From Auanema rhodensis (taxonomy: Eukaryota; Animalia; Nematoda): a stretch of DNA of 64,000 nucleotides. Positions 1 through 61,500 of this stretch are shown in pieces. The notes under the pieces are model-generated. The model had not been told where the DNA came from. It saw only the letters and a list, made by a program, of their open reading frames with translations, and searched no databases. The position numbers and the translations under genes are program-made. The stretch lies in NCBI GenBank assembly GCA_964057225.1, contig OZ059898.1, forward strand, positions 10,292,001-10,356,000. The letters are read 5' to 3'. Each line of letters opens with the position of its first letter. Positions within the stretch are counted from its first letter, which is position 1.

Positions 1-197
1 AAAATATGGTAACAGTTTTTATTAAAAGTTTCCATGATTAAGATTAAACAAAGAAAAAAAATCAAAGAGAAACACTTCTTGTTTACTAATTTGATTATAA
101 CACTTGAAAATCCAACAAAAGTAAAATAAAACTGTAAAAGCGAGTAAAACTGTTGAAATAAAACAGTTTTTATTAAATATAAATGATATTTTTTTAT

Positions 198-202
198 AAA
201 AA
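198..202 (-). terminator. Pol III oligo-T terminator (T5) of the first tRNA; an equivalent T5 or T4 follows nearly every copy
   Basis: Minus strand reads tRNA-ACTTCATTTTT; most central copies read ACTTCACTTTT. Confidence 0.7.
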
Positions 203-208
203 TGAAGT

Positions 209-279
209 TGCATCGGCCGGGAATCGAACCCGGGTCGCCCGCGTGGCAGGCGAGCATTCTACCACTGAACCACCGATGC
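209..279 (-). tRNA. tRNA-Gly(GCC)
   Basis: Reverse complement GCATCGGTGGTTCAGTGGTAGAATGCTCGCCTGCCACGCGGGCGACCCGGGTTCGATTCCCGGCCGATGCA: 7-bp acceptor stem, A box, GCC anticodon, GGTTCGATTCC B box, no encoded CCA. Confidence 0.97.
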
Positions 280-1067
280 TTGTTAGATTGTTTCCGAAAA
301 ATTATGAAAAGTCAAGTTCTACTGATTTGAAGAAAATTGTAAGTTTTAGAAAATAATTAAAAATAAGTTCTCTCTACTATTAACTGATTGTCGGCTAAAA
401 TATGGTAACAGTTTTCATGAAAAGTTTCCATGATTAGGATTAAACAAAAAAAAGAATTAAAAAGAAACACTTTTTGTTTACTTATTTGATTATAATACTT
501 GAAATTCCAAAAACAGTAGAATAAAATTGAGAAATCGACAAAAACAGTTGAACAATTTGAAGACAATTGTAAGTTGAAGAAAAAAATTAAAGTTTAGCTC
601 TCTCTACTATTTAATGATTGTCGGCTGAAATATGGTGACAGTTTTTTATTAAAAGTTTCCATGATTAAGATTAAACAAAGAAAAAAAATCAAAGAGAAAC
701 ACTTCTTATTTACTTACTTGATTATAATACTTGAAATTCCAAAAACAGTAAAATAAAATAGAGAAAGCGACGAAAAAAGTTGAACAATTTGAAGACAATT
801 GTAAGTTGAAGAAAAAAATTAAAGTTTAGCTCTCTCTACTATTTAATGATTGTCGGCTAAAATATGGTAACAGTTTTTATTAAAAGTTTCCATGATTAAG
901 ATTGAACAAAGAAAAAAAAATCAAAGAGAAACACTTCTTGTTTACTAATTTGATTATAACACTTGAAAATCCAACAAAAGTAAAATAAAACTGTAAAAGC
1001 GAGTAAAACTGTTGAAATAAAACAGTTTTTATTAAATATAAATGATATTTTTTTATAAAAATGAAGT

Positions 1068-1138
1068 TGCATCGGCCGGGAATCGAACCCGGGTCGCCCG
1101 CGTGGCAGGCGAGCATTCTACCACTGAACCACCGATGC
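1068..1138 (-). tRNA. tRNA-Gly(GCC)
   Basis: Identical 71-nt copy. Confidence 0.97.
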
Positions 1139-1926
1139 TTGTTAGATTGTTTCCGAAAAATTATGAAAAGTCAAGTTCTACTGATTTGAAGAGAATTGTA
1201 AGTTTTAGAAAAGAATTAAAGTTCAGCTATCTCTACTATTAACTGATTATCGGCTAAAATAAGGTAACAGTTTTTATTAAAAGTTTCCATGATTAAGATT
1301 AAACAAAGAAAAAAAATCAAAGAGAAACACTTCTTGTTTACTTATTTGATTATAATACTTGAAATTCGAAAAAAAGTAAAAAACAATTGAGAAAGCGACA
1401 TAAACAGTTGAACGATTTGAAGAGAATTGTAAGTTTTAGAAAAGAATTGAAGTTTAGCTTTGTCTACTATTAACTGATTATCGGCTGAAATATGGTGACA
1501 GTTTTTTTTTAAAAGTTTCCATGATTAAGATTAATCAAAGAAAAAAAATCAAAGAGAAACACTTCTTGTTTACTAATTTGATTATAACACTTGAAATTCC
1601 AACAAAAGTAAAGTAAAACTGTTAAAGCGAGTAAAACTGTTGAAGAATTTGAAGACAATTGTAAGTTGAAGAATAAAATTAAAGTTTAGCTCTCTCTACT
1701 ATTAACTGAATGTCGGCTAAAATATGGTAACAGTTTTTATTAAAAGTTTCCATGATTAAGATTAAACAAAGAAAAAAAATCAAAGAGAAACACTTCTTGT
1801 TTACTAATTTGATTATAACACTTGAAAATCCAACAAAAGTAAAATAAAACTGTAAAAGCGAGTAAAACTGTTGAAATAAAACAGTTTTTATTAAATATAA
1901 ATGATATTTTTTTATAAAAATGAAGT

Positions 1927-1997
1927 TGCATCGGCCGGGAATCGAACCCGGGTCGCCCGCGTGGCAGGCGAGCATTCTACCACTGAACCACCGATGC
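1927..1997 (-). tRNA. tRNA-Gly(GCC)
   Basis: Identical 71-nt copy. Confidence 0.97.
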
Positions 1998-2785
1998 TTG
2001 TTAGATTGTTTCCGAAAAATTATGAAAAGTCAAGTTCTACTGATTTGAAGAAAATTGTAAGTTTTAGAAAATAATTAAAAATAAGTTCTCTCTACTATTA
2101 ACTGATTGTCGGCTAAAATATGGTAACAGTTTTCATGAAAAGTTTCCATGATTAGGATTAAACAAAAAAAAGAATTAAAAAGAAACACTTCTTGTTTACT
2201 TACTTGATTATACTACTTGAAATTCGAAAAAAAGTAAAAAACAATTGAGAAAGCGACATAAACAGTTGAACGATTTGAAGAGAATTGTAAGTTTAAGAAA
2301 AGATTTAAAGTTTAGCTTTGTCTACTATTTAATGATTGTCGGCTGAAATATGGTGACAGTTTTTTATTAAAAGTTTCCATGATTAAGATTAAACAAAGAA
2401 AAAAAATCAAAGAGAAACACTTCTTATTTACTTACTTGATTATAATACTTGAAATTCCAAAAACAGTAAAATAAAATAGAGAAAGCGACGAAAAAAGTTG
2501 AACAATTTGAAGACAATTGTAAGTTGAAGAAAAAAATTAAAGTTTAGCTCTCTCTACTATTTAATGATTGTCGGCTAAAATATGGTAACAGTTTTTATTA
2601 AAAGTTTCCATGATTAAGATTGAACAAAGAAAAAAAAATCAAAGAGAAACACTTCTTGTTTACTAATTTGATTATAACACTTGAAAATCCAACAAAAGTA
2701 AAATAAAACTGTAAAAGCGAGTAAAACTGTTGAAATAAAACAGTTTTTATTAAATATAAATGATATTTTTTTATAAAAATGAAGT

Positions 2786-2856
2786 TGCATCGGCCGGGAA
2801 TCGAACCCGGGTCGCCCGCGTGGCAGGCGAGCATTCTACCACTGAACCACCGATGC
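2786..2856 (-). tRNA. tRNA-Gly(GCC)
   Basis: Identical 71-nt copy. Confidence 0.97.
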
Positions 2857-3645
2857 TTGTTAGATTGTTTCCGAAAAATTATGAAAAGTCAAGTTCTACT
2901 GATTTGAAGAGAATTGTAAGTTTTAGAAAAGAATTAAAGTTCAGCTATCTCTACTATTAACTGATTATCGGCTAAAATAAGGTAACAGTTTTTATTAAAA
3001 GTTTCCATGATTAAGATTAAACAAAGAAAAAAAATCAAAGAGAAACACTTCTTGTTTACTTATTTGATTATAATACTTGAAATTCGAAAAAAAGTAAAAA
3101 ACAATTGAGAAAGCGACATAAACAGTTGAACGATTTGAAGAGAATTGTAAGTTTTAGAAAAGAATTGAAGTTTAGCTTTGTCTACTATTAACTGATTATC
3201 GGCTGAAATATGGTGACAGTTTTTTTTTAAAAGTTTCCATGATTAAGATTAATCAAAGAAAAAAAAATCAAAGAGAAACACTTCTTGTTTACTAATTTGA
3301 TTATAACACTTGAAATTCCAACAAAAGTAAAGTAAAACTGTTAAAGCGAGTAAAACTGTTGAACAATTTGAAGACAATTGTAAGTTGAAGAATAAAATTA
3401 AAGTTTAGCTCTCTCTACTATTAACTGAATGTCGGCTAAAATATGGTAACAGTTTTTATTAAAAGTTTCCATGATTAAGATTAAACAAAGAAAAAAAATC
3501 AAAGAGAAACACTTCTTGTTTACTAATTTGATTATAACACTTGAAAATCCAACAAAAGTAAAATAAAACTGTAAAAGCGAGTAAAACTGTTGAAATAAAA
3601 CAGTTTTTATTAAATATAAATGATATTTTTTTATAAAAATGAAGT

Positions 3646-3716
3646 TGCATCGGCCGGGAATCGAACCCGGGTCGCCCGCGTGGCAGGCGAGCATTCTACC
3701 ACTGAACCACCGATGC
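3646..3716 (-). tRNA. tRNA-Gly(GCC), 5' flank replaced by the gypsy 3' LTR
   Basis: Identical 71-nt copy; LTR begins 3 nt upstream of G1. Confidence 0.97.
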
Positions 3717-3719
3717 TTG
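3716..3719. repeat. Target-site duplication CTTG (left copy)
   Basis: Empty site in neighbouring units is gatgcttgttag; the filled site reads gatg-CTTG-[element]-CTTG-ttag. Confidence 0.85.
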
Positions 3720-4085
3720 CGTTCCATTATGCTCCTACGTATATTGAACAGACCATTGTAGTCTGCTCAACTACGCGTATAGTATTCCATAAGTGTAGCG
3801 GTATGGAAACAGAGCATAAGGATTACATAAGATAAGGAAATATATAGGTTTATTATACACAATACAATATCATTACAATACATTAACACAAGGATAAAGT
3901 AAACTACATTTACAAGACAAAGACTAATATATAAGATTAACTAAGTTAGATGCAAACCGTCCATGGGCTTGCAAAGGGGCGAACTCCCGAATAGGGGCAT
4001 GAGGGAAGGCGGTGCCATTCCTCATTCCTCTAGTCGGTCTGGCTCTAACCCTGCAGTTACATATATAGAGTCTCCGAATGGAACG
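3720..4085 (-). repeat. 3' LTR (366 bp)
   Basis: cgttccatt...aatggaacg, matches 15426-15791; 9-bp terminal inverted repeat; AATAAA on the minus strand at 3849-3854. Confidence 0.96.
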
Positions 4086-4790: not shown

Positions 4791-7700
4791 TTATTCTTCT
4801 TCATTCCTCGGAAGCCATATTTCGTCTTCATTTTCATCTTCTGGCTCTGTATCTATGCTATCCTTGTTGTTCCTGTTGATCACTTCTATTATTTCGATGT
4901 CGCTATCTTCTTCTGCTTGACTTTCTCGAAACCTTGCGCGAGTGTTGTAAGAGATGTTTTGTGAAGCAGGAGAGAAGATTTTCAAGTTATCTTTGTGGAT
5001 ATCTTGTAGTTTTCCTGATGAATTTCTGATTTGAACTTTTGATCCTTCTACGTTGATGACTTCGCATGGTCCATCATAGCTTTTCCGAAGCTTTTGGCCG
5101 ATTTGGTGTGATTTTATAGTCGTCATCACCATGTCGCCCGGTTGAATGTCTCTATGGTGTGCTCTTTGCGTTCTATCTTTCTTCTTTTTCGCATTTTCTT
5201 GATTTTTAGCTATGCGGTTCTTTATTATTTCGTCTCTCTTGTCCATATCTGGTCTTCTTTGGAGTAATTCTTCAGAAATTTCTTGAATTTTGGTGATCGT
5301 TTCTGGTAATTCAGCGTCCATTGACATTCTGCATTCTTTACCGAATAATGCAATGTATGGCGCAATCCCTGTAGTCGCGTGCTGAATATTGTTAATAGCA
5401 AAAGTGATTTTTGGTAATACAGTATCCCAGTCACTAAGGTCCTCTTTTAAGTAGTGGGTTAATCCTTCTTCGAGGGTTCGGTGAAGTCTTTCCACTTGTC
5501 CATTTGAGTTCTTTTGGTGTGGTAGTGTTGGTTCATGTTTGATTCCAAGTTTAGTACACATTTCTTCGAACTTTTTAGATACAAAGTTTGAACCTCTATC
5601 GGTGATCAAGCGATGGGGTGGTCCAAAAATGTAAACGAAATGTCTTAGAAATCGATCAATTGTGATTTCCGTTGTTATTTGTGGTACAGCAATTGTTGTT
5701 GACCATTTTGTAAATGCGTCTTGCATGGTAATGACGTAGGTACAGTTTCTTTTTGAAGGGGGAAATGGTCCCATTACGTCCATGTGGACTCGTTCAAATG
5801 GCTTGCTTGGTATCTCAAAATGACCTATTGGTTGTACCGTCATGGAATGTGGATCTTTTTTTCTTTGAGCACATTTAATGCAGTTCTTGATGAATATAGT
5901 AATGTCGTTCTGCATATTTGTCCAATAGAATCTTCTTAGAATTGCTTCTTTTGTTTTAATAATTCCTTGATGTGCTGCAATTGTAGGATCCTCATGAAAA
6001 ACTTTGATTATTTCCTCAATTATGGGGTGTTCTTGTGGTATTACGATAGCGGGTTGTGGCTTTTTGTCTGTTGGTTTTGTATAGAGCAAGTCATTTATGA
6101 CACAATATCTGTCATTAGCTGTCATGTTCTTTTGTGCTCTATATTCAATCTCCGCTATCGTCCGTTTAATCCAAGGGGTGCTTAGTTGAATTTCCTTTAT
6201 TGTTGGTGTATTTATGGCGTTAATGTGAATTTCTTCCATTTTCTTCTTCTTTGTTTCCGGCTTAGCATCGTTAGCTTCTTCACCTATATATCGAGATAGA
6301 GCATCGCATACTTTATTTAATTGGCCTGCGCGATATTTTATTTCAATATCATATTCTTGGATGACCAGCTGGAACTTCGCAAGACGACCAAATAAGTCTC
6401 TGCGTGTCATTAAGCTGGTAAGAGGTCGATGGTCCGTAATACATATAGTATGAGTTCCAAGAATGTATGTACGGAATTGATTTAATGCATATACAAGGCC
6501 TAATGCTTCTATCTCGATTGGTGCGTAGTTACGTTCGGCTTTAACTAGTTTTCTGCTTGCAAATGCGATAGGGTGTAGATTTTTCAGAGGTTGTTTTGGA
6601 TCTTCCGGTTGTAATAATACAGCACCTATGGCGATGTTACTACCGTCGCTTTCAACTATAAACAAGCGGTCCGATTTAGGTGGGCTTAAAACGGGTGCCT
6701 GTATTAAACTTCTTTTAAGGAGGTCTAAAGCTTCTTGATGTTTGTTTTCCCATTTGAATTCAGTATCTGCCTTTGTCAGATCGTATAAAGGGCTTGCGAT
6801 ACGTGCAAAATCTTTCATGAATTTGCGAAAGAATCCAACCATTCCCAAGAATGCTCGTACACCTGTTGCATTCTTTGGTGCCGGATAATCTTGTATGGCG
6901 GCGACTTTTTGAGGGTCAGGTTTTATACCTTGACGTCCTACAATAAGTCCTAGAAATTTCACTTCTGGTTGAGCAAAAGCGCATTTCTTAAGCTTTATCT
7001 TCATTCCCAATTCTTCTACTGCTTGCAGTAAATCATCGATATCTTTGAGATGTTGTTCTCTTGTATCAGATATAACTAATAGATCGTCCAAATAAACAAA
7101 TAGTTTACAAGAACATTTACTTTGCAAATACCTTACTGCTGTTTGAAAGGTATGAGGGGCTCCACAAAGGCCCATCGGCATCCGTTTGTACTGGTATGTG
7201 CCGGATGTGGTCGTAAATGCTGTTAGTGGTCGATCTGATTTTCTCAAGGATATTTGAAAAAATCCTGACACTAAATCGAAGTTTGAGAAAAATTGGGCGC
7301 CTGCTGCCAAATCAACTATGTCAGAAATGCTTGGAATGACATAAGTTTGCTTGCGTGTGACATTATTTAAAGCTCGAAAATCTGTCACAAACCTATACGT
7401 GTCATCTTTCTTCTTAACTAGTACTACAGGGCTATTAAATAGAGATGTAGAAGGCTCTATTATGCCTTGCTCAAGCATTTCTTTGACTTGTTTTTCAATT
7501 TCTTCCTGTTTTCCTAAGGGAATACGTGTTATTCTCGGCTTTGGCATATCCATATCTGTTCTCAATGGTATGGTATGCTCTATAGGACCTTTAAATAAGC
7601 CTATTTTCCTGTCCTCGTTAAGAAATGCCTCACGATGGCTTTCAATTATTTTTGTAAGCTCATGTTTTTCTTCTTTCGTGAGATCAGCATTCTCTAGATC

Positions 7701-8470
7701 AAGATCTTTTATGAAGTCTCTTGGAAAATATGGTAGTTTACTCTCCCAATCGGCCTCTGGCGGAACATATGGTAGAATTGGCTTATGCTTAAAGGGTTCA
7801 CAAGCCGGAATTTCTCCAATTATTGCCTGTCCGATGACTGAATTAGCTTCCATAGCTATTGTTTCATCGGTATTGTTACGGAACATAACATATACTCCAC
7901 TGGTATCACGAAACGCAGTTGGATATAATGATTTTAATGCGCTTCCACTATCCCCTAAGACAACCACTTCGTTAGATTCTAGTGGTTTATCTGTCTTTAT
8001 TGGGATAGGTGCCTCTTCATCAGGCTTTAATGTTTTTGTTCTTAAATTAATGATATTCACAGTTATCTCCGTATGCTTAATAGATTCGTTTCCTATTAAT
8101 GGGATGGCATTGTTTCCAATCTCCAACCTCTTCTTGGATGGTTTAAGGCTGACGTCGATGTTTTCGCTGTCAAGCGCTTTCATGAAATCTAGTCCAATTA
8201 AAGCGGGAGCAGGACAGTCATGATCGTTTGAGACCAAAAAGGTGTGTTCGATCTCGTAACCGGCAATTTCAATTACAAGATTTATCTTTCCATAAAATGT
8301 GAAAGTGGACTTGTTGGCTGCCATCGCTACTAAATGTCTCTTCTTGACATTTTCGGCCATGTTCAGATATTTGAGGGTGGAGAGCCTAACATATGACACT
8401 GATGAGCCTGAATCCCATAAAGCTAAAATCAGTTTATCTTCAACTGATATATATATTAATGGTAACTTTG
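4791..8470 (-). other. pol: Pol region: aspartic protease, reverse transcriptase, RNase H, integrase
   Basis: DSG, SPVVLVKKKD..YRFVTDFRALN, DLVSGFFQI, MPMGL, YLDD, RAFLGMVGFFRKF, integrase core. Confidence 0.97.
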
Positions 8471-11400
8471 TTTCCGCTGATACAATAGAAGCAACAAATG
8501 GTATTGCGATTGGAATAAATGTTACTAAAGCAGGATAGTATTGCTTCATGATGTTATCTGGCATCTGTTGGTCTGGGCGGCTTACAAGTTCCAATGTTTC
8601 TTCATAGCTTGGGGGCTCATTATCTATTTCGTGGACATGCATTACGGTTAGTGGAGTGGCTCTGAAGAACCAAAATTTAGCAACAACGAAAAGAATTATT
8701 AATACTGCGGCAATCGTAACCATTGATCCTATGAAGATGAGTGTTCTCTCAATTGATCCTATTAGAAATTGCTTTACGCTAGTCCAGGCGGAAGTTGTGA
8801 ACTCAGCTGCTTTAGAGATATAGTCACTGCCCTTTTTCAAAAGATTAAAGGCGGACGTAATTTTTGGATCGTTGTGAATAGTATGTAAAACATGGTTCTG
8901 TCGTATGGATGCTAAACTTGCTCCATATGCAATAGCTGTTGACATTGAGTAAACTCTCAATGATAAATTGGTGTATAAGTTAGCGCCTGTGAACTTTAAA
9001 GGTGTTAATTGGTGGTATTGCGCTTTATCAAAGAGTGATATTGGTTTTACTTCAACCGATCCATTTATATTTATCCATTCTCCATTTTGATAGTATACAT
9101 CTGTGGGTACATGTTCGCAATCTATCTCTTTTCCATGTGTTAATAAGTCTCTTGATCCTGGAGCAGCAAAATATAATCTCTCATCTTCTGTTATTACTGG
9201 TGTTTCCAAATAGCATGTATCATTGATCTTATGATTATGATAAACAGCTTTAGGTTGAAGAGGTAGGCATATATGAACATGAACTATATCGCTGCCTACG
9301 AAACGGGCTGCAATATCCTCTCTTCCTAAAATAGTCCTCATTGCTATTGTAGGTTCTATGTGTAAAATAGAACGCCATAGCTCGAGGTATCTATTTTGAA
9401 TCTCACATATGGATTCATAAGATTCCATGAAATGTTTCTGTAGCTCTTCTTGTATGAGTGTTGTTGTATATTGTAGATGATCTTGAGCTATTCTGCGAGA
9501 TACGTTGAGGTTGAATTGTATTTCGTTGTTCACTTTTGACGCTGTATACGTTGCCTGAGCCTGAATTTCTCTGGTTTCTACGGGTGGAGATGATGTTCTT
9601 TGTTTCCTTAAGATTCGTGACGCCGTGTCAGTGACTGTTGCTAATGTTGTTGGCGAGAGAGTCGTAGTTATCGCGGCTGTTGTCGTCTCAACTGTGGTTG
9701 TCGTCGGAATCCGAGTCGTATGGCTTTTAGTTGTCTCCTGAACTAGTGAAGCGGGTTTGTCCGTTGTTGTCGTTAATGACAGTCTTCTAGTCAGATAAGG
9801 CGGTGTTTCAATATCCTCTAACAGTGGTAAAAATGTTTTTATAAGTAGCTGGCGTGTATCTGCGCTTGGGTTTTGAATGCGAGGGTGGGGCCCTATCGAT
9901 ATACCGTAGTTAGAATCTTTATCTCGATATAATTTGTTGGTATCTGGCACATTGATTGTTAATTGTCGGAACTTTTCATCATCTACGGCTGCTGCTGTTT
10001 TATTTGGCCTTATTACTCGCAATGTCATCAAGTTATGGTATAAGTAAAGAGTGTTTCTAAGTACTATACGCTCATCAGCATTGTCAGTTGTTAGAGTTGG
10101 TCGGATCGGCGGCATGTTCACAAAGGATTTTAAAACCTCTTGCCTTGATGGTACCGACAGATTGTTTTCAAATATTACCGGTGTATAAGCTAACTCCATC
10201 GCTATGCTTTCGGCTCTTTCACGGTAGGATCCGTCTTTTTCTAGCAGTTTTTCGTCAAATTCGTGTGCTGTTAATCTGTCACCTATCTGTTCTAATAATT
10301 GTTGTGAGGTTAAATACCGTATAGCGCCGCGAGTGGTTGCTGCCAGTTCCTTTTGCGCAAGAAAATAAAGTATTGCTTCCTCAGGGTCGTGTATTTCGTA
10401 TGTTTGAAGGAAACGTTGTATGGATTTATCAGATACGGGACTTCTTAAGAAGAAATAAAACTTCTCGGGATGTGCTGAAACCCAGTCAATAATTGAATAT
10501 GAAGGGTTGACAGCTCGTCTGGCCTTTATAAGCGGTATTATCTGATAAATACCAGGATTACTCATCACCGGTCGTAAGAAAGGATAAGGACAAATATTTA
10601 ATATTAAAGTTTCAAAATCTTCCTGTTTTTGTATCCACTCCTTGTTTAATTCAACCGTGCATTCCGCAATTGCTCTTTTATCTCTTTTCGCCGGAAGTTT
10701 CTTATATTCTCTCTCTATTAAAACATGGATATTGGTGTCATTTGGGTACTGTGGTAAGAGAATGTAATTGCCAGTTGTGGTGTGGAAGATTGGCTGTTTA
10801 AAACAAGAAGATATTTGCTTCGGTATCTCTTTTTGATCGATTACAAGGGCTGATTGAGTGGTTGGTAACAGAATAATGCCGTCTCCAATTATCACATCAT
10901 ATTCACTCATGTCGATATAGTTGCATCGATATTCATAAGGCTGTTTCTCCCATATGATGATTGAGGTATCTGATGCACATTCTCCATGATGCGCTAAGCA
11001 TCCTTCAGTATTTAGTATTAAATTGGAGATTATAGTTTCATCTGGCATCCGTGTCATAACCCCTCTTTCGATAACCAATCTGGCTTTCTCTTCACATAGT
11101 TCATTATTAAAAGATCGGCCTGGCGAGAAGGAAGGCTCGTCAGTTGCATATGTTATGCTGTCGATCTTCTTTAATTCACTCCAATTCCATCTTCTATCTC
11201 TCACTGCCAGTCTGCATTCTGCAGCTGGTATCTTTTCAATTCTCGCTATCGTTGTATTGGTATCTCTAAGGAACAAAAGGTCTCTGATACACATTTTATG
11301 AATTTCTTTGGAGCATCTCCATGCATCCCATTCATGTGCCGTTTGATTCCTTGTATAAAGATGAACTTTTGTTCGTAAGATATGCTTTATTGGTGGTAAT

Positions 11401-13496
11401 AAGCATTTTCGGAGAGATGGGGGACGGAGAAGGGCTCCTCCAGTAGCTTTAGTACATAGCTGGTATGCTTCAGCTGTTGTAACCAGTGATAAGATTACTG
11501 ATAAAGCTACGGCTAAAGTCAAAGGAGATATCAGAGTCAAATTATTGACTCTTGAGCCTCTACCTCTGCCTCTATTGTTGTTATTTCCCCTAAAGGTACT
11601 GTTATTTCTCTGTCTATTATTGCTCATTTCTTGATTTTGTGATGCATTATGGCTTCTTTGATACCCATTTTGATTTTGATTCTGATAATTTCGACCGCGG
11701 TCACCAAAATTGCGGTTCCTAGCAAATGGGTTTTGGAAATTCCAGCCTTTTTGATTTTTTGAAAATTTATGATAATTTTGATTGTTTTGAAAGTTTGGAT
11801 GATAATTGTTATAATTATTATAATTTTGATAATTTTTATTATTAAAAGATTGATAACCTCTTGCCATACCTCTCCCACCATTGTTTCTGCGCGGGGGGAA
11901 AGTTCTTTCAATTGCGTTAACCAATAGCGCCTGAGGGTCTGCTACTTGGTTTGCAATTGATTCCTCCCAGCGAGCACTATCAACAGCCTCAGCAAAAGTT
12001 TTGGGTTTTGCTCGAATTACCCCTGGGCGTATCGTATTTTTCAAGCCTCTCAAAAATGTGGACCTCAGAATGTGATCTTTATGAGTATCACTATTAGAGA
12101 AAGCATTTAAGCTGAGGTTTCTTAACGTTTGTGCAAAACCATCAATTGATAAATCGCCTTGAGTGCTGTTTTGAAGTGTGATAAGGGCAGGGTCTTGATT
12201 GTATTCGGGACACAGCTTGGATGTTAACTCTTCTATTAGGGTAACCCAAGGTCCAGCAGTTCTGACCTTGTCAGGTAGCTCTAAATAAGCTTCCTCTGCT
12301 CTATCATTTTTCAATAGTAATGGTAAAATAGTTAGTCTTTCGGGCATCACTAAGCCTAAGGCGTTAGAAAAGGTATTAAACTTTGCCACGAAATCTCTAA
12401 AGTTACGACTTCCGTCGTATATGGGGCAATAAGGTGAGCTTAATGCGTGCGCAATGGTAGATTTACCAGCTCCCGGAAGACGTGGTGTCTCCGTCATGGT
12501 TGGTATATCCTCAGGGTATGTGCGAGATGACGTAATCCCTTTACTGCCTGAGCTTCTCGCCGTTAAATTCTTACCTCCCTTTTTCGAGTTACCAGATGTT
12601 GGATAACTAATGGTAGGGGCGGCTGAGGAGAACCGCTTCCCTGGGAGTTTGATAATTCGACTCGTTGCCTGAGGCGTCGAATGTATTGATACGCTTGAGC
12701 TGGGTATAGCGCTATCTGACTTATTAAGGGTTGGGTTGGAGGATACGTGAAGAGAGTTATCAACTTGTTCTGTTGTTACCTCCCCTGGAGACAAATTCAA
12801 AACTTTTATTAAGCGAGCTGTTAAAGATTTCTTACTTTTGAACTTATCAGTAGTTAGTGATAAGGGCAAAACTTCGGTAATTTCCTGATTTGGTTCTACG
12901 GGATTATTAGAGGTTGAGCGCCTACGCGGTGTATTAGTTTTTCTTTTATTAATTTTTTTAGAATCAAGCTTTTTCGAATCAAGCTTATCAGTGATAACTG
13001 ATAAGGGTGATTTGCGAATAGTGAGAGATGAGGTTTTATTAAGTTGTGAGTTTTCTATCGGAGTGGAAAATGCCTGCGGTGTTAGAGTTAGTTCAAAAGA
13101 AGATGCAAGATCGTTATCAGTATTAACTGATAAAGTTGATAAGTTTAGGTGGGGAGTGGCTGGTGAAGTATTAGAGGTTATTTGTTTTGGTTTTTGAATT
13201 TTTTGAATCTTTTTATTACTTTTAAAAGAGTGTACCTTTGGAGTTGAAGCTGAAGTTTGAATATTGTAGTCCTGAATATAGAAATCAGGGTCCTCCTCGG
13301 TGTTGTCCGGAGGTGAATACGTGCCTTCTCGAGGAATGAAGGTTTTCTCGACTTTGGGTTTTACCTCTTGTTCAGGCTCTTCAATCTGAACACTGAGGAG
13401 TCGAGTGCGGCTTCTGGTTCGACTGGCGACTGCGATGTCGTCACTGGACTCAGAAGGGTATAGAGCAGGGACGGCCGAAGAGTATCTTCGTGCCAC
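4791..13496 (-). CDS. Gag-Env-Pol polyprotein (2901 aa as called from GTG; true start uncertain, first ATG at 12497)
   Basis: Gag capsid motifs (YDGSRNF; FLRGLKNTIR; PKTFAEAV), signal peptide plus Cys-rich ectodomain plus TM, protease LWDSGS (8406-8414), RT YLDD (7083-7094), RNase H ESDGS/TDHRPL, integrase H-H-C-C and D,D-E (HMDVMGP, ITDRGSNF, QVERLHRTL). Confidence 0.95.
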   Translation of the reverse strand: MARRYSSAVPALYPSESSDDIAVASRTRSRTRLLSVQIEEPEQEVKPKVEKTFIPREGTYSPPDNTEEDPDFYIQDYNIQTSASTPKVHSFKSNKKIQKIQKPKQITSNTSPATPHLNLSTLSVNTDNDLASSFELTLTPQAFSTPIENSQLNKTSSLTIRKSPLSVITDKLDSKKLDSKKINKRKTNTPRRRSTSNNPVEPNQEITEVLPLSLTTDKFKSKKSLTARLIKVLNLSPGEVTTEQVDNSLHVSSNPTLNKSDSAIPSSSVSIHSTPQATSRIIKLPGKRFSSAAPTISYPTSGNSKKGGKNLTARSSGSKGITSSRTYPEDIPTMTETPRLPGAGKSTIAHALSSPYCPIYDGSRNFRDFVAKFNTFSNALGLVMPERLTILPLLLKNDRAEEAYLELPDKVRTAGPWVTLIEELTSKLCPEYNQDPALITLQNSTQGDLSIDGFAQTLRNLSLNAFSNSDTHKDHILRSTFLRGLKNTIRPGVIRAKPKTFAEAVDSARWEESIANQVADPQALLVNAIERTFPPRRNNGGRGMARGYQSFNNKNYQNYNNYNNYHPNFQNNQNYHKFSKNQKGWNFQNPFARNRNFGDRGRNYQNQNQNGYQRSHNASQNQEMSNNRQRNNSTFRGNNNNRGRGRGSRVNNLTLISPLTLAVALSVILSLVTTAEAYQLCTKATGGALLRPPSLRKCLLPPIKHILRTKVHLYTRNQTAHEWDAWRCSKEIHKMCIRDLLFLRDTNTTIARIEKIPAAECRLAVRDRRWNWSELKKIDSITYATDEPSFSPGRSFNNELCEEKARLVIERGVMTRMPDETIISNLILNTEGCLAHHGECASDTSIIIWEKQPYEYRCNYIDMSEYDVIIGDGIILLPTTQSALVIDQKEIPKQISSCFKQPIFHTTTGNYILLPQYPNDTNIHVLIEREYKKLPAKRDKRAIAECTVELNKEWIQKQEDFETLILNICPYPFLRPVMSNPGIYQIIPLIKARRAVNPSYSIIDWVSAHPEKFYFFLRSPVSDKSIQRFLQTYEIHDPEEAILYFLAQKELAATTRGAIRYLTSQQLLEQIGDRLTAHEFDEKLLEKDGSYRERAESIAMELAYTPVIFENNLSVPSRQEVLKSFVNMPPIRPTLTTDNADERIVLRNTLYLYHNLMTLRVIRPNKTAAAVDDEKFRQLTINVPDTNKLYRDKDSNYGISIGPHPRIQNPSADTRQLLIKTFLPLLEDIETPPYLTRRLSLTTTTDKPASLVQETTKSHTTRIPTTTTVETTTAAITTTLSPTTLATVTDTASRILRKQRTSSPPVETREIQAQATYTASKVNNEIQFNLNVSRRIAQDHLQYTTTLIQEELQKHFMESYESICEIQNRYLELWRSILHIEPTIAMRTILGREDIAARFVGSDIVHVHICLPLQPKAVYHNHKINDTCYLETPVITEDERLYFAAPGSRDLLTHGKEIDCEHVPTDVYYQNGEWININGSVEVKPISLFDKAQYHQLTPLKFTGANLYTNLSLRVYSMSTAIAYGASLASIRQNHVLHTIHNDPKITSAFNLLKKGSDYISKAAEFTTSAWTSVKQFLIGSIERTLIFIGSMVTIAAVLIILFVVAKFWFFRATPLTVMHVHEIDNEPPSYEETLELVSRPDQQMPDNIMKQYYPALVTFIPIAIPFVASIVSAETKLPLIYISVEDKLILALWDSGSSVSYVRLSTLKYLNMAENVKKRHLVAMAANKSTFTFYGKINLVIEIAGYEIEHTFLVSNDHDCPAPALIGLDFMKALDSENIDVSLKPSKKRLEIGNNAIPLIGNESIKHTEITVNIINLRTKTLKPDEEAPIPIKTDKPLESNEVVVLGDSGSALKSLYPTAFRDTSGVYVMFRNNTDETIAMEANSVIGQAIIGEIPACEPFKHKPILPYVPPEADWESKLPYFPRDFIKDLDLENADLTKEEKHELTKIIESHREAFLNEDRKIGLFKGPIEHTIPLRTDMDMPKPRITRIPLGKQEEIEKQVKEMLEQGIIEPSTSLFNSPVVLVKKKDDTYRFVTDFRALNNVTRKQTYVIPSISDIVDLAAGAQFFSNFDLVSGFFQISLRKSDRPLTAFTTTSGTYQYKRMPMGLCGAPHTFQTAVRYLQSKCSCKLFVYLDDLLVISDTREQHLKDIDDLLQAVEELGMKIKLKKCAFAQPEVKFLGLIVGRQGIKPDPQKVAAIQDYPAPKNATGVRAFLGMVGFFRKFMKDFARIASPLYDLTKADTEFKWENKHQEALDLLKRSLIQAPVLSPPKSDRLFIVESDGSNIAIGAVLLQPEDPKQPLKNLHPIAFASRKLVKAERNYAPIEIEALGLVYALNQFRTYILGTHTICITDHRPLTSLMTRRDLFGRLAKFQLVIQEYDIEIKYRAGQLNKVCDALSRYIGEEANDAKPETKKKKMEEIHINAINTPTIKEIQLSTPWIKRTIAEIEYRAQKNMTANDRYCVINDLLYTKPTDKKPQPAIVIPQEHPIIEEIIKVFHEDPTIAAHQGIIKTKEAILRRFYWTNMQNDITIFIKNCIKCAQRKKDPHSMTVQPIGHFEIPSKPFERVHMDVMGPFPPSKRNCTYVITMQDAFTKWSTTIAVPQITTEITIDRFLRHFVYIFGPPHRLITDRGSNFVSKKFEEMCTKLGIKHEPTLPHQKNSNGQVERLHRTLEEGLTHYLKEDLSDWDTVLPKITFAINNIQHATTGIAPYIALFGKECRMSMDAELPETITKIQEISEELLQRRPDMDKRDEIIKNRIAKNQENAKKKKDRTQRAHHRDIQPGDMVMTTIKSHQIGQKLRKSYDGPCEVINVEGSKVQIRNSSGKLQDIHKDNLKIFSPASQNISYNTRARFRESQAEEDSDIEIIEVINRNNKDSIDTEPEDENEDEIWLPRNEEE
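8604..11540 (-). other. env: Envelope-like glycoprotein region (probable class III fusogen, herpes gB/chuvirus G-like)
   Basis: Signal peptide LTLAVALSVILSLVTTAEA/YQLC, spaced Cys, N-glycosylation sequons (NQT, NTT, NWS, NDT, NVS, NGS, NLS), furin site RDKR (10674-10685), motif CEIQN..EPTIAMRTILGREDIAAR..C..CYLETPV..F..RDLL..C, TM at 8679-8741, PPSY. Fold assignment is by recognition, not by search. Confidence 0.8.
11550..12497 (-). other. gag: Gag region (capsid-like domain followed by an N/Q/R/G-rich tail; no CCHC knuckle)
   Basis: Retrotransposon-gag-like residue pattern, then RGMARGYQSFNNKNYQNYNNYNNY...NNNNRGRGRG. Confidence 0.8.
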
Positions 13497-13908
13497 TTTG
13501 GAATCACTCTTGGTTCGGAAAAACCGCGAGTGTTTCGTTATATGGGGGATGTTGACGTTGAATGAGTGACAAGAAATTCGGGTCGGTTATAGGAAAAGTA
13601 AGAAACGTTTGAAGATTGAGACGTGGCGTCTTTCGCCGAGAATCGTTATTAGATGAGAAAGAGTTTTAAAATCTTGGCCTGAGATCTGGCTCCGCCTATC
13701 TACCGTATTCTCTTTTCTTTATTCTATTTCACAGATGTTCATCAATTATAAATTTTTTTGGTCTTCGCTCTTTCTAGCCTCAATCTTAATACTTTACTCT
13801 AATTGAATTCTTGAAAGTATGAGAGAGATTTTCAGTCGTTTTATGTCCCCTTTTTATGCATAAGAATCTTTATATTTGTAGAGCTGAAAAAAAAAAATAA
13901 ATCAAAGA

Positions 13909-14442
13909 ATGGCTTATGAAGGTCTATCGGGAATGACTTTTGTCTTGAGGAAGCTGTACGCTGACCTCGTCTTGTATGATCAAGACGAAGTGTTAGCTTA
14001 TAGGCCGCACCCAGACATAATTAAGATGGTTGGTTAAAACAAAGAAACATGTTATCTTAATAAGAATTTTTAGTTTATTGAGGATTTAAAGATGCATTAT
14101 CTGGGAAGGGGATTAGTAAACTTCTCCCTAATGCAGGAAATAGCGGATGAGGTTGCAGCTATCCGGCGATGGTGCCTCACCGACTTGTGCGCGCATTGGT
14201 ATGAAAACCCAAATCTGGTCGCATCCCCTTGGAATTGGTATGAGCATAAGTCTCATGATTTTTATGATTATATGTCTAAAATTTTGTTTAAAATTTATTT
14301 ATTTTATGAACAGTCTCCTATGGGCTTATTGCTAAGGACCTCTGCGGATTCGGTGTATTCGCAGTATTTAGAGCCTAGCGATGAGCCCATCTCACAGCCT
14401 ATAGAATTTGTGAGACAGTTGCATTTTAAATGGGGCTTTTAA
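13909..14442 (+). CDS. Putative two-exon accessory gene antisense to the element (exons 13909-14028 and 14074-14442; 162 aa; unknown function)
   Basis: 40-codon exon MAYEGLSG...PDIIKM, 45-nt AT-rich intron GTTGGT...TTTTTAG, in-frame join to FIEDLK-MHYLGRG...KWGF*, AATAAA 16 nt after the stop. Confidence 0.65.
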
Positions 14443-14458
14443 CAATTGTTTCATATAT

Positions 14459-14464
14459 AATAAA
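14459..14464 (+). promoter_or_regulatory. Polyadenylation signal of the antisense gene
   Basis: AATAAA followed by a pyrimidine/T-rich tract at 14480-14510. Confidence 0.55.
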
Positions 14465-15412
14465 TACTTAATTTCACTCATTTGTTCTCTCTCTCTTTTT
14501 TTTTTTTTTCCATAACACAAACTTTGGTCGAGCTTATTAATAAAGAAGGAGTGCGTGCGCCTTGGGAAAATGGCTCATGTGCACGTTATTATTAAAAGCC
14601 GTGGGCGATTCTTTTTCGGAATGATTTTGGCATGCTAATGAGATTCCGAGAATATTTAAAAAGATTGCTCATTTTACTAATGGACTGAGACCAAAGCTCG
14701 TTTATAAAACGCAATTTTTTTCTTTAAACCATTCTACTAATTTATAGAATATTACAATATGAATACTACGGTAGGTGTGTGGGAATATCTTATGATGTTA
14801 GCAACAAAAATGAGCTGAGGAAGGTGACACATTCTACGGAGAAGAAAACATCCGTAGCCCATGTGCTTTCGCCAAAATGACCTGACAGGCAATAAAATTT
14901 GTGCCAGGATTTTTCGGACTAGTGTGGTCTATTCTCACAATCAAAAAAAAAATAAAAACCGAATAACGGCTCCCGCAAAAATATTTAGTTAGCATGCTCT
15001 TTTACGCCTGAATTTAACTTTCAAATCTCTAGTCCTGACCACAATAAAATATTAAACTTTGTGCGCTTTCAAAATTTCATTCTAACTCCTCGTTGCCAAA
15101 TAATAATGTAATCAAAATTTCGTTTGGTGAAATTGTCCCCTATTTCGATCCAAACGTCCTCAAAAAAAAATGCAAGAGAAGCGGTGCAGGATACGGTATT
15201 ATAAGGGTGGACACTCAGACGGTTTTATGAGTGGGGACAGCGGGTGAAATTTCAAAATTATGTAGTCCTAGCTCTCTAAAAGAGAGATCCCTTGTACCTG
15301 CACCTTATACAAGTTGGCGCCCTCATTATGTTGCTAACCGTGGAGGAAGTTTTAATTTAGATATCAAAATATGGACTTTTTATGCGAGTTTTTGCGACAA
15401 AAATGAGTTCGA

Positions 15413-15425
15413 GGTGGAACCTCCA
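15413..15425 (-). promoter_or_regulatory. Primer-binding site, tRNA-Gln
   Basis: Minus strand TGGAGGTTCCACC directly after the 5' LTR; complementary to the conserved eukaryotic tRNA-Gln 3' end GGTGGAACCT-CCA. Confidence 0.85.
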
Positions 15426-15791
15426 CGTTCCATTATGCTCCTACGTATATTGAACAGACCATTGTAGTCTGCTCAACTACGCGTATAGTATTCCATAAGT
15501 GTAGCGGTATGGAAACAGAGCATAAGGATTACATAAGATAAGGAAATATATAGGTTTATTATACACAATACAATATCATTACAATACATTAACACAAGGA
15601 TAAAGTAAACTACATTTACAAGACAAAGACTAATATATAAGATTAACTAAGTTAGATGCAAACCGTCCATGGGCTTGCAAAGGGGCGAACTCCCGAATAG
15701 GGGCATGAGGGAAGGCGGTGCCATTCCTCATTCCTCTAGTCGGTCTGGCTCTAACCCTGCAGTTACATATATAGAGTCTCCGAATGGAACG
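15426..15791 (-). repeat. 5' LTR (366 bp)
   Basis: Identical by eye to 3720-4085; followed by the PBS. Confidence 0.96.
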
Positions 15792-15795
15792 CTTG
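15792..15795. repeat. Target-site duplication CTTG (right copy)
   Basis: aatggaacg-CTTG-ttagattg. Confidence 0.85.
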
Positions 15796-16582
15796 TTAGA
15801 TTGTTTCCGAAAAATTATGAAAAGTCAAGTTCTACTGATTTGAAGAAAATTGTAAGTTTTAGAAAATAATTAAAAATAAGTTCTCTCTACTATTAACTGA
15901 TTGTCGGCTAAAATATGGTAACAGTTTTCATGAAAAGTTTCCATGATTAGGATTAAACAAAAAAAAGAATTAAAAAGAAACACTTCTTGTTTACTTACTT
16001 GATTATACTACTTGAAATTCGAAAAAAAGTAAAAAACAATTGAGAAAGCGACATAAACAGTTGAACGATTTGAAGAGAATTGTAAGTTTAAGAAAAGATT
16101 TAAAGTTTAGCTTTGTCTACTATTAACTGATTATCGGCTGAAATATGGTGACAGTTTTTTATTAAAAGTTTCCATGATTAAGATTAAACAAAGAAAAAAA
16201 AATCAAAGAGAAACACTTCTTATTTACTTACTTGATTATAATACTTGAAATTCCAAAAACAGTAAAATAAAACTGTTAAAGCGAGTAAAACTATTGAACG
16301 ATTTGAAGACAATTGTAAGTTGAAGAAAAAAATTAAAGTTTAGCTCTCTCTACTATTTAATGATTGTCGGCTAAAATATGGTAACAGTTTTTATTAAAAG
16401 TTTCCATGATTAAGATTGAACAAAGAAAAAAAAATCAAAGAGAAACACTTCTTGTTTACTAATTTGATTATAACACTTGAAAATCCAACAAAAGTAAAAT
16501 AAAACTGTAAAAGCGAGTAAAACTGTTGAAATAAAACAGTTTTTATCAAATATAAATGATGTTTTTTTATAAAACATGAAGT

Positions 16583-57798: not shown

Positions 57799-57860
57799 TT
57801 CGAAAATGTTAGATTGTTTCCGAAAAATTATGAAAAGTCAAGTTCTACTGATTTGAAGAG

Positions 57861-57924
57861 TGTCGCGATAAGCGAGTGAGTTTGTATAATTTTTTTATCT
57901 TCAACAATTGTTTTATTTGTTTCT

Positions 57925-58001
<77 letters not shown>

Positions 58002-58245
58002 TTCTTCTAACTTCCTAAGTAATTTTTATCCATACCACATGTTGTGTTATACATGTGGCATGACTAACTCTTTGTTTCAGGCTGACGACCGCCCACGAGA
58101 AGAGATCAGTCTTACATTTTTTAACGTTCGCAGTCAGTGATTCTATTCCGTGCTTGTCTTGTTAATTCATCAATAAACCCTTTTCTACATATTCGCTTTG
58201 TGTTTTATTTCCAACCATACTATACACTTGCGGTATAACGCCACA
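57861..58245 (+). repeat. Predicted 5' LTR of the BEL/Pao element (385 bp)
   Basis: TGTCGCG...CGCCACA imperfect terminal inverted repeat, AATAAA at 58172, PBS 3 nt downstream; the second LTR is outside the window. Confidence 0.8.
57929..57998 (+). repeat. (CT)35 microsatellite inside the BEL LTR
   Basis: Direct reading. Confidence 0.95.
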
Positions 58246-58248
58246 AAT

Positions 58249-58260
58249 TGGTGCATCGGC
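58249..58260 (+). promoter_or_regulatory. Primer-binding site, tRNA-Gly(GCC)
   Basis: TGGTGCATCGGC is the exact complement of GCCGATGCA+CCA, the 3' end of the array tRNA. Confidence 0.9.
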
Positions 58261-58526
58261 TAGTTCAGATCTTAGCCGCTTCAAGTCCCGCGTGGCAGGT
58301 GAGATACAGCTCAAACCAAGCGTGTTTGAGCAAAAAACATACTTAATAGAAATCGTGGCAACCATTAGTCCACGTCAAGTCACACCAAAAAGACTTGAAC
58401 CATAAGCAAACTCTGCAGACAGAAACAGAGATTCACTATCACATATACTGTGATCACCAAACAAACAAAAAAAAAAAAAGAGAAAGTAAAAGGAATATAA
58501 GCATTATTCCTACATCTACGACAAAA

Positions 58527-61500
58527 ATGTCACTCCTTTTTGTCAATCATATCAAACAGTCTAACCAGTTTCTCGGAGAATTACTTACACGATACGAGAT
58601 GGAAGTGAAGGACCTTCCTGGTATTCTGGTAGATTGCGACTTCCACACTGAGGAAGAAGAGGAAACCCTCTCTTGCCTTATCATTCGCTGGACAAAAGTC
58701 CAACACCAATTCAAAGAATCGTTGAAAAATCATCAAGATAACGAGAAAAAATTCCAAAAATTTTACGAAGCATCAGACAAAACGCTTCGTAAAGCATTAG
58801 ACGAACAGTACATCGCCTTCACATCCGATGAAGACTTTGAACCCAACATTAAAAAGGTTCAAAACGCCATTATTGAGCTTGACGAACACATCATGAAAGC
58901 CGAACGCATACTTAGAAAGCTGAGAAAAACGCTTCATAAGAATGAATCTGAGCACAACAGCAATCGCTCAACAGAAAACAATGAAACAGAAAACAAATCG
59001 AATGATCAATTTCTGGAAATTATCAAGTCATTCCTACACATCCAACAAACTAGTATCCAAAAACCAGCGATGTCGCTACCTACATTTGATGGCAAACCAG
59101 AGAACTTCAAATCATTCTGGGGCCGTTTTGATAGACTTGTTCATGATAATGAACAGTTTACAACCTTAGAAAAGGTAAACCTACTCTGTGAAAGCCTCAA
59201 AGGCGATTCACAAATAGCAATCAGAGGAATAGAACCCTCTGCTCAAAATTATGAGCTTATGCGTGAAGCATTAGTTTCTGAATTTGGAGACTATTCGTCG
59301 GATATCAACTCTCTTTTGACACAACTACGTAATTTGAAATTTGCAAGCAATAATGCAAAAGCATGCAAAGAAACATTTGGAGAAACCAAGGCACTTATCA
59401 GGCAAATTGAAGCAGCCGGAGCTACAGTATCCCGCGAAATGTGTACCGCGATGATTCTCAACAAATTCCCATACCACATCGTGGAAGACATTCTAATTCA
59501 TCCAAACAACTACCATTCTACTAAAGAAATGCTGACAGCTGTAGACCACAAAATCTATTCCTTTTTTCTAAAAGAACAAACAAGAAATAGTCATGAACAA
59601 AAGTTTCGAAATCACAAAGACAATGTCACATCTGTTTCACATAAAGACAGCACTGCAGAACAACGGAAAACCCAAACTTGGCCATGTGTCTTTTGCGACT
59701 CATCCGAGCATCGTTTTTATCAATGCACCACATTTGAAACACCAGAGAAAAGAAGGTACCGCATTCGCGGAAAGGCCATCTGTTGGATTTGCTTTTCCGA
59801 TAAACACAAAAGTTCGGAATGCAGAAAACAAAAATGTCGCAATTGCCAAGGAGATCATAATTCCGCCTTGTGCTCACAAGGAAGAAAAAGTGTACAAAAT
59901 ATCCAAAAAGATAAAGAAACTCCCACAATTAAAAAAGATCAGGCTTTACTGATCACCACAGAAGAATTATTGAATAAAAAAACAACAGAATATAAACAAG
60001 AATCTGACACTAATAATCGAATCCCTACTGAGGCACTTAATGCACCAGTATCGCTTAATCACATTGCTGACACACATAATATTGAAGAAAGTCAAGTAAT
60101 ATTACGAACAGCAATGGCGAACATATACAACCACAATAGTAAAAAATATGAGCAAGTACGCATGCTCATAGATGAAGGATCCATGAGATCTTTTATATCC
60201 AAGGACCTATCTACAAGATTAGGACTGCCCATTCTTGGTTCTCAGAAGAGAACCTTTTACGGCATTGGAGCATTATCAGAAACACATGAAGTTGAAGATG
60301 TTAAGGTAATTATTGGAACCTCAACTGGATCCCTTATCGTAACAAAACTGTTCACAAAACCCATGTTAACCACACCTATACGGTGTCCTAAACTATCTAA
60401 TGAAGACTTAAAATTCATACAAAGAAGAAAAATTAAATTAGCCAATCCAAAAACAAACGGAGAATCATTTACTCCGGATATACTGATAGGTATGGATAGA
60501 TACAAACTATTCATGCACTTAAACGAAGAAACCGAACTCCCCTCACGTATGAGATTGAAAAACTCGGTATTCGGCCACATGATACATGGGGAAGCTCCTC
60601 TTCCCGATGATAATACACAACAAGAAGTAATATTATGCTCTACATTAGAAGAGATAACAAAAGAAACCTCTCATAAAGAACTCCTCACTAATCTGTTTGA
60701 ACTGGATTCTATCGGCATCAATACAGAAAATGCCAACGCAGACCGCACTATTGATTACTATGAAGAATACTCAAAAGATATAAAAATTGAGAACAACCGT
60801 ATTATTGCACCGTTCCCGTTAAAAAATAACTTCAAAAATCTCAAAAACAACAAAATGCCCGCGTACCATAGATTCGTATCCCTATGGCGAAAGTTACTGC
60901 ACAATCCAGAAATGCTCTCACACTATACTACAACCATTGAAAGTTACCTCAAAGATAACATTGTCGAACAAATTCCCAACAATCACCAGGAGCCTTTAGA
61001 GTTTTATATGCCCCACCATGGGGTTTGGAAGCCCAGCAAGGCTAACCCTCTCAGAATCGTTTTTGACGCCTCCGCTAAACAGAAGGATAGCCCATCGTTG
61101 AATGAGATAATACACACAGGACGATCATTTATCACATATATACACGACATCATGATCTCCTGCAGAACAAGACCAATAATAATAACATGCGATATTAAAG
61201 CCGCATTTCTACAAGTACAATTGACAGAAAATCACAAGAATTTATGCAAATTCTTTTGGATAAAAAACAAAGAATACCCAATATCACACAATAATATCAT
61301 AACCCTTCGATTCAACAGATTACCATTCGGTATCACTGCATCCCCCAGCGTATTGAACATGGGCATAAAATGGTTCTTAGAATCAAAAGTAGACAACCCA
61401 TTAGCTATGGAAATCCTGCACAATTTATACGTCGACAATATCATTCTTACAGCAAATACAACCGAAGAAGCTATAAAGAAATGTAAAGAAACCCAAACAC

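Follow-up and report, generated by a model that had tools for sequence, protein, structure and literature searches.

Introduction

Ty3/gypsy retroelements with the gene order gag-env-pol have been described in nematodes, bryozoans and flatworms (Chary and Hayashi, PMC13524379), and Sacco et al, 2022 is cited in the same source for 'non-canonical nematode endogenous retroviruses'. Primer-binding sites for tRNA-Gln are given there for 8 of 36 nematode rows and for none of the 10 bryozoan or 9 flatworm rows (PMC13524379, supplementary file 1). Catalogues of the enveloped Ty3/gypsy elements of invertebrates have so far covered gag, env and pol alone. The words 'antisense' and 'accessory' each occur 0 times in the main text of PMC13524379, figures lying outside this count, and the passage of PMC5408684 that was covered contributed nothing about antisense genes. 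In the literature searched, the scope of which did not extend to the likeliest source, Sacco et al, 2022, no antisense gene was found reported from the leader of a gag-env-pol element.

Antisense additional ORFs are known from the maize element Grande (gene23), from rice RIRE2, from Retand (the TRP28 ORFs) and from Boty of Botrytis (brtn) (PMC7264820, PMC11963269, PMC8365987), those of plants having a promoter of their own (PMC7264820). In Caenorhabditis elegans the LTR element Cer1 makes CERV, a spliced accessory protein with splice acceptors before its start codon. CERV is encoded on the sense strand, has 517 amino acids and exons in common with gag, and is needed for export of the genomic RNA (PMC10309623).

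We describe here a stretch of 64,000 nucleotides from the nematode Auanema rhodensis (contig OZ059898.1), referred to below as the window, which holds a probable accessory gene, as judged from sequence, of an unrecognised family in an element of known type with an unusual back-to-back splice layout. Like gene23, the RIRE2 and Retand ORFs and brtn, it would be an extra coding gene of obscure function, antisense to gag-pol in a Ty3/gypsy element and likely to have its own promoter. Unlike these, it belongs to an enveloped animal element, where it occupies the 5' leader head-to-head with gag, and it is without TRP28 or any other Pfam domain. It would work like an aORF-3R but is not one, because it is placed between the primer site and gag. 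With CERV it has in common that its mRNA would be spliced and that the product, an accessory protein of a nematode Ty3/gypsy element, lacks homologues outside its lineage; it differs from the published description of CERV, on which this distinction is drawn, in being antisense, in its length of 162 amino acids and in having no similarity to the polyprotein of its element.

A young and intact gag-env-pol element

The features of the element and of its insertion site are as follows.

3646..3716, minus strand: tRNA-Gly(GCC) gene with the element at its 5' end, 1 of 41 in the window
3716..3719 and 15792-15795: left and right copies of the 4-bp target-site duplication, covering tRNA-Gly +1 to -3
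3720..4085, minus strand: 3' LTR, 366 bp, same sequence as the 5' LTR
4791..13586, minus strand: single ORF of 2931 codons, with its first ATG only at 12497
15414..15425, minus strand: primer-binding site, a 12-nt match to the 3'-most 12 nt of tRNA-Gln
15426..15791, minus strand: 5' LTR, 366 bp, same sequence as the 3' LTR, ends CG...CG

The Ty3/gypsy element is 12,072 bp long, lies on the minus strand and is inserted in a tandem repeat array. It is young and intact: its two LTRs are identical and are flanked by the 4-bp duplication, and all 2931 codons are open. The antisense gene would thus have been copied together with the element. Along the polyprotein the order is a gag-like region, a fusion glycoprotein of the gB/Monjiviricetes type, protease, RT, RNase H and integrase. 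The gB-type env ahead of the protease was recognised by Pfam at residues 1368-1511 (PF24664, E 5.7e-15; PF00606, E 6.4e-9); the other Pfam stretches are protease (1714-1803, below the cut-off), RT (2057-2215), RNase H (2279-2412) and integrase (2522-2690). No gag match to Pfam was found ahead of env, and the gag region is named by its position. A search for the gag region of sister elements with polyprotein residues 330-720 gave no homologue among proteins of 1612-5130 aa, and none of 19 viral contigs searched with RT-RNase H matched.

The element resembles the errantiviruses with an env of the HSV gB type, sharing with them the gag-env-pol order as far as gag can be placed by position, the gB-type env, a size of about 12 kb, the 366-bp LTR and the tRNA-Gln primer site (PMC13524379). 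The 12-mer of the primer site is the tRNA-Gln 12-mer given for two Caenorhabditis elements (PMC13524379, supplementary rows), and by this feature a nematode host is likely.

Antisense to the protease-RT region there is also a stop-free frame of 292 codons (7345-8223, plus strand) with no Pfam match, which is probably a shadow frame. Both LTRs end in CG...CG with a short terminal inverted repeat, the usual termini of LTRs being TG...CA.

A two-exon frame antisense to the polyprotein

The 1836-nt (1.8-kb) 5' leader harbours, on the strand opposite to the 2931-codon ORF and inside the LTRs between the primer site and gag, a two-exon frame with the following parts.

13817..13835, plus strand: donor-like GTATGA (13817) and alternative acceptor TTTTCAG (ends 13835)
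13875..13881, plus strand: acceptor-like TTTGTAG, 27 nt ahead of the ATG at 13909
13909..14028, plus strand: exon 1, 40 codons from the ATG
14029..14073, plus strand: predicted GT-AG intron, 45 nt, phase 0, with two in-frame stops
14074..14442, plus strand: exon 2, 122 codons and the stop
14459..14464, plus strand: AATAAA, predicted poly(A) signal of the antisense gene, 17 nt past the stop
about 14481..14511, plus strand: pyrimidine/T-rich tract beyond the poly(A) signal

Joined, the two exons encode 162 amino acids. An earlier note on this DNA had given the ATG at 13909, the 40-codon exon, the 45-nt GT-AG intron, the AATAAA and the T-rich tract, all of which proved to be right; it also had the extent of the second exon right, its figure of 123 codons including the stop. 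The ATG has an A at -3 and a G at +4. The GC content of the intron is 22%, against 44% in exon 1 and 40% in exon 2. Its donor junction reads ATG/GTTGGT and it ends in TTTTTAG, neither this donor nor the TAG acceptor being of the strongest consensus.

The same note held that the acceptor at 13881 was unpaired and a possible trans-splice site. TTTGTAG is indeed found there, but it is not clearly unpaired: the donor-like GTATGA at 13817 would define with it an intron of 65 nt, and TTTTCAG ending at 13835 is a better acceptor. These motifs do not distinguish trans-splicing at 13881 from a cis-splice with the donor at 13817 or from use of the site at 13835. An upstream coding exon joined in the same phase through 13881 is ruled out by an in-frame TGA at 13885. 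Upstream of the gene, a hydrophobic mini-ORF of 23 codons (13735-13806, plus strand) directly follows a strong acceptor-like site ending at 13734; this mini-ORF may be a uORF or form an exon upstream of the gene.

Evidence that the antisense frame is probably coding

A blind search of both strands of the leader for the longest model of the form ATG-GT-(40-65 nt)-TTTYAG-stop returned exactly the antisense model, with its 162 codons. Among 1000 dinucleotide shuffles of the leader none matched this length (median 42 codons, 95th percentile 88). Exon 2 taken alone carries little weight, as a stop-free run of at least 122 codons arose in 62 of 1000 shuffles. Its openness is not explained by the other strand, because there is no long frame there; the longest is of 60 codons, and each of the five other frames has 7-13 stops. 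The GC3 of the exons is 0.49 and 0.41, against 0.31 for the polyprotein.

When 1.84 billion cluster representatives were searched exhaustively with exon 2, a single match emerged, P0003, a singleton of 125 aa from a contig of 1035 nt, known from its protein sequence alone. It aligns with the whole of exon 2 (query residues 1-122) at 59% identity with an E of 4.3e-38, the frame being kept through two one-codon indels, and it stops at the same residue. No homologue of exon 1 was found, and P0003 does not cover it: P0003 starts with M-F-Q, directly ahead of the exon-2 match and three residues before it. These F-Q codons are compatible with a TTY-CAG acceptor in the same phase as the TTT-TAG of the window.

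Between P0003 and exon 2, 50 of 121 aligned positions differ, and 19 of the 50 require at least two base changes where about 8 would be expected; doubtful alignment near the indels of P0003 may have raised this figure of 19. Set against the share of about 15% expected without selection, this has a binomial probability of 9e-5, or 0.004 under a laxer 21%. Such a number of multi-base changes points to selection on the protein. Neutral drift to the same identity would leave the frame stop-free with a probability of 0.023, though the set of representatives consists of called ORFs only, which in part ensures an open frame in P0003. The amino-acid differences are not clearly more conservative than those expected under neutrality (mean BLOSUM62 score -0.22 versus -0.63, z 1.7), and the share of them with a positive score is 0.30, compared with 0.28 under neutrality. 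Taken together, the frame, its end and the multi-base changes point to selection on the protein.

Two lines of evidence, the shuffle control and a single relative in which the exon-2 frame, the C-terminal end and a compatible acceptor position are preserved, support the reading as a real coding gene. We consider it very probable that the two-exon frame is a coding gene, and fairly likely that the gene has been kept as part of the element family.

Back-to-back acceptors and a proposed expression of the two strands

Directly against the 13881 site there is a second acceptor, on the element's own strand, which the earlier note did not contain.

13884..13897, minus strand: T11-CAG acceptor, back-to-back with the 13881 site

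It is the only TTTTCAG on the minus strand of the 12-kb element, and its T-run is the complement of an A-run in the 5' UTR of the antisense gene. Mature RNAs starting from 13881 on the plus strand and from 13884 on the minus strand would share 2 nt. This geometry was noticed post hoc, and an A-rich 5' UTR gives a T-run on the other strand in any case. No such layout was found in the literature searched on nematode enveloped retroelements.

The distribution of ATGs on the sense strand changes at this site. In the 1542 nt before 13884 there are 22 (22 expected), in the next 297 nt there are 2, and in the following 1089 nt there are 0 (6 to 14 expected). The last of these stretches (12498-13586, minus strand) comprises 363 open codons (chance about 3e-9) with no ATG in any frame until Met 12497, and no NCBIfam match was found in it; an open stretch so free of ATGs suggests a non-AUG start with leaky scanning, or an unseen upstream exon. 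Given the strong acceptor at 13884 and the drop in sense ATGs beyond it, the antisense gene would likely lie in RNA that is removed from the polyprotein mRNA. That this mRNA is spliced or trans-spliced at 13884, dropping the leader with the antisense gene, seems to us an evenly balanced proposition on these signals.

Expression of the two strands might then proceed as follows. Transcription of the antisense gene would run away from gag, driven by a promoter that lies within the beginning of the long ORF or just ahead of it. A splice at 13881 or 13835, in trans or in cis, would give the RNA its 5' end, and the RNA would also lose the 45-nt intron and be polyadenylated past 14459. Antisense orientation is known to shield the introns and poly(A) signals of retroelement genes during copying via genomic RNA. 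Here the intron and the poly(A) signal would have been kept because the gene is antisense and neither is read in the genomic RNA; they would survive reverse transcription, with no shortening of the genome. The polyprotein mRNA, spliced or trans-spliced at 13884, would lose the antisense gene in full, along with the leader and 22 of the 24 ATGs that lie upstream, and from a mature 5' end near 13883 would then be scanned. If 13884 is used in this way, the mature mRNAs would overlap by 2 nt only, which would leave unspliced genomic RNA as the sole pairing partner of the antisense mRNA. Back-to-back acceptors would in that case explain both how an RNA with 24 ATGs upstream can yield a polyprotein and how pairing between the sense and antisense mRNAs is avoided.

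A bolder version, which we regard as speculative and unlikely, is that a 23-nt junction with two back-to-back acceptors starts two opposite mRNAs overlapping by 2 nt, one for gag-env-pol and one for a small protein of a new family. As the antisense mRNA would pair only with unspliced genomic RNA, the cassette would both encode a countermeasure to host silencing and discriminate RNA for packaging from RNA that is translated.

Character of the antisense product

The earlier note did not recognise the product, and this was borne out by searches that found neither family nor fold. Pfam, taken up to an E of 10, gave no family for either exon, for the intron read-through or for P0003, and NCBIfam gave no match for the antisense product. 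The best match in PHROGs had an E of 0.12 and was not credible; five matches to PDB sequences (E 0.14-0.8) were at chance level. In the word-index protein search, 0 of 33 candidates held up for the read-through query and 1 of 26 for the two-sequence profile, this one being P0003 itself. Of the metagenome contig stretches compared, 453 in one set and 92 in another, none matched, nor did any of 45 viral contigs with the two-sequence profile. The antisense protein has no similarity to the polyprotein of its own element, the 64-kb window holds no second copy of the gene, and Rfam gave no match across 13400-15800.

In prokaryote genomes 1 of 23 candidates gave a match of 19 residues, which overlaps a 520-codon ORF resembling a membrane protein and was rejected as chance. 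Neither DUF3800 (Atlas 0.81) nor Peptidase S28 (0.76) is supported as the family of the product, both scores being under 0.9, the lead differing between the two homologues, Pfam giving no match and the models being too poor for a comparison of folds.

Two AlphaFold models are mostly helical, with mean pLDDT values of 42.7 and 53.5; exon 1 was modelled only as part of the intron read-through, which makes the model of the mature N-terminus unreliable. With these low-pLDDT models, Foldseek gave no match at an E of 0.001 among PDB or viral structures, and the best Z score in VIA-align was 4.8, with 0 of 48161 chains at a Z of at least 5, from which at such pLDDT the novelty of the fold cannot be inferred. 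Recognition by a language model scored 1393 and 1777, where most known families reach 2300.

The product is acidic, with a net charge (K+R-D-E) of -2 for exon 1, -6 for exon 2 and -10 for P0003, and has no long hydrophobic stretch, the highest 19-residue hydropathy being 0.90 and 1.05. Both properties together argue against a basic nucleic-acid binder of the HBZ kind and against a membrane protein. It would act through protein contacts and not by binding nucleic acid, and our best guess from its composition is a soluble protein-binding adaptor. HBZ is a bZIP protein transcribed from a promoter in the 3' LTR. It is the antisense gene of a retrovirus, HTLV-1 (PMC11963269), and the earlier note had offered it as a possible analogue of the gene described here. 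The analogy holds for orientation, both being antisense genes of a retrovirus or retrovirus-like element, but not for location, the present gene lying in the 5' leader, or for the product, which is acidic and has no bZIP or other Pfam match. Given that acidity, the analogy is positional only.

Alternative explanations

On balance we favour a real intron-containing accessory gene, placed backwards in the 5' leader of a gag-env-pol Ty3/gypsy element, whose product of 162 aa is predicted to be an acidic, small helical protein-binding adaptor that dampens host control. A role in anti-silencing or host control comes from the context of the gene alone and is put forward tentatively, as a doubtful part of this reading. 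If the reading is true, a conserved spliced antisense leader gene would make this lineage one of 'complex' retroelements with an accessory factor of their own, and would add a protein family without recognised relatives together with a testable route for coping with host silencing.

The gene could instead be a passenger captured recently from the host, capture being one of the options in the earlier note, in which case P0003 would be a host paralogue or orthologue, selection would have acted in the host and the gene would be of no use to the element. A host gene gained by antisense read-through or DNA recombination would bring along features of the kind present here, namely a poly(A) signal, an intron and a site that may serve trans-splicing; the exons exceed the polyprotein in GC3; and P0003, a protein from a 1035-nt contig, might come from a host locus. 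However, neither of two protein collections, nor Pfam or NCBIfam, contained a named or annotated cellular homologue, annotations tending to miss repeat-masked genes, and the 5' end of the antisense gene fits against the element's own acceptor at 13884. Capture from the host thus finds no support in these searches and we regard it as rather improbable.

It is more doubtful still that the antisense RNA is the working product, pairing with the leader of the unspliced genomic RNA to feed small-RNA silencing or block packaging, and so limiting copy number, with the protein secondary. The whole gene is complementary to the leader and, if 13884 is used, to unspliced RNA alone, and for micropia non-coding antisense RNAs and a role of dsRNA have been discussed (PMC7264820). 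Against this, the frame, its end and the multi-base amino-acid changes point to selection on the protein, and the leader region gave no match in Rfam. A role of the RNA and a role of the protein can coexist.

That there is no spliced gene at all, exon 2 being a chance or decaying frame or the 177 codons an old ORF broken by two nonsense changes, might be argued from the 6% of shuffles with a stop-free run as long as exon 2, from amino-acid changes that are not clearly conservative and from the low recognition scores and pLDDT, but is very unlikely, as no shuffle matched the full two-exon model, both stops fall within one AT-rich 45-nt GT-AG stretch of an element that is stop-free over 2931 codons, and the called ORF of P0003 begins at the exon boundary and ends at the same residue.

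Insertion site of the element

Most of the window is filled by a tandem array of AT-rich repeats of about 231 bp with a higher-order arrangement (1-3700 and 15800-57860), which carries the 41 tRNA-Gly(GCC) genes, every one on the minus strand. The element is placed exactly at the 5' end of one of these, and the sequence of the empty site is found in 5 of the 41 units. For Ty3, integration takes place 1-4 bp away from where Pol III starts (PMC5911963). With a single insertion, and that in an array dense in tRNA genes, targeting of the Ty3 kind in an animal element is no more than hinted at. Another insertion, on the plus strand, starts some 60 nt upstream of the final tRNA gene and occupies about 57860-64000. 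Judged by eye, it looks like an LTR element of the Bel/Pao type.
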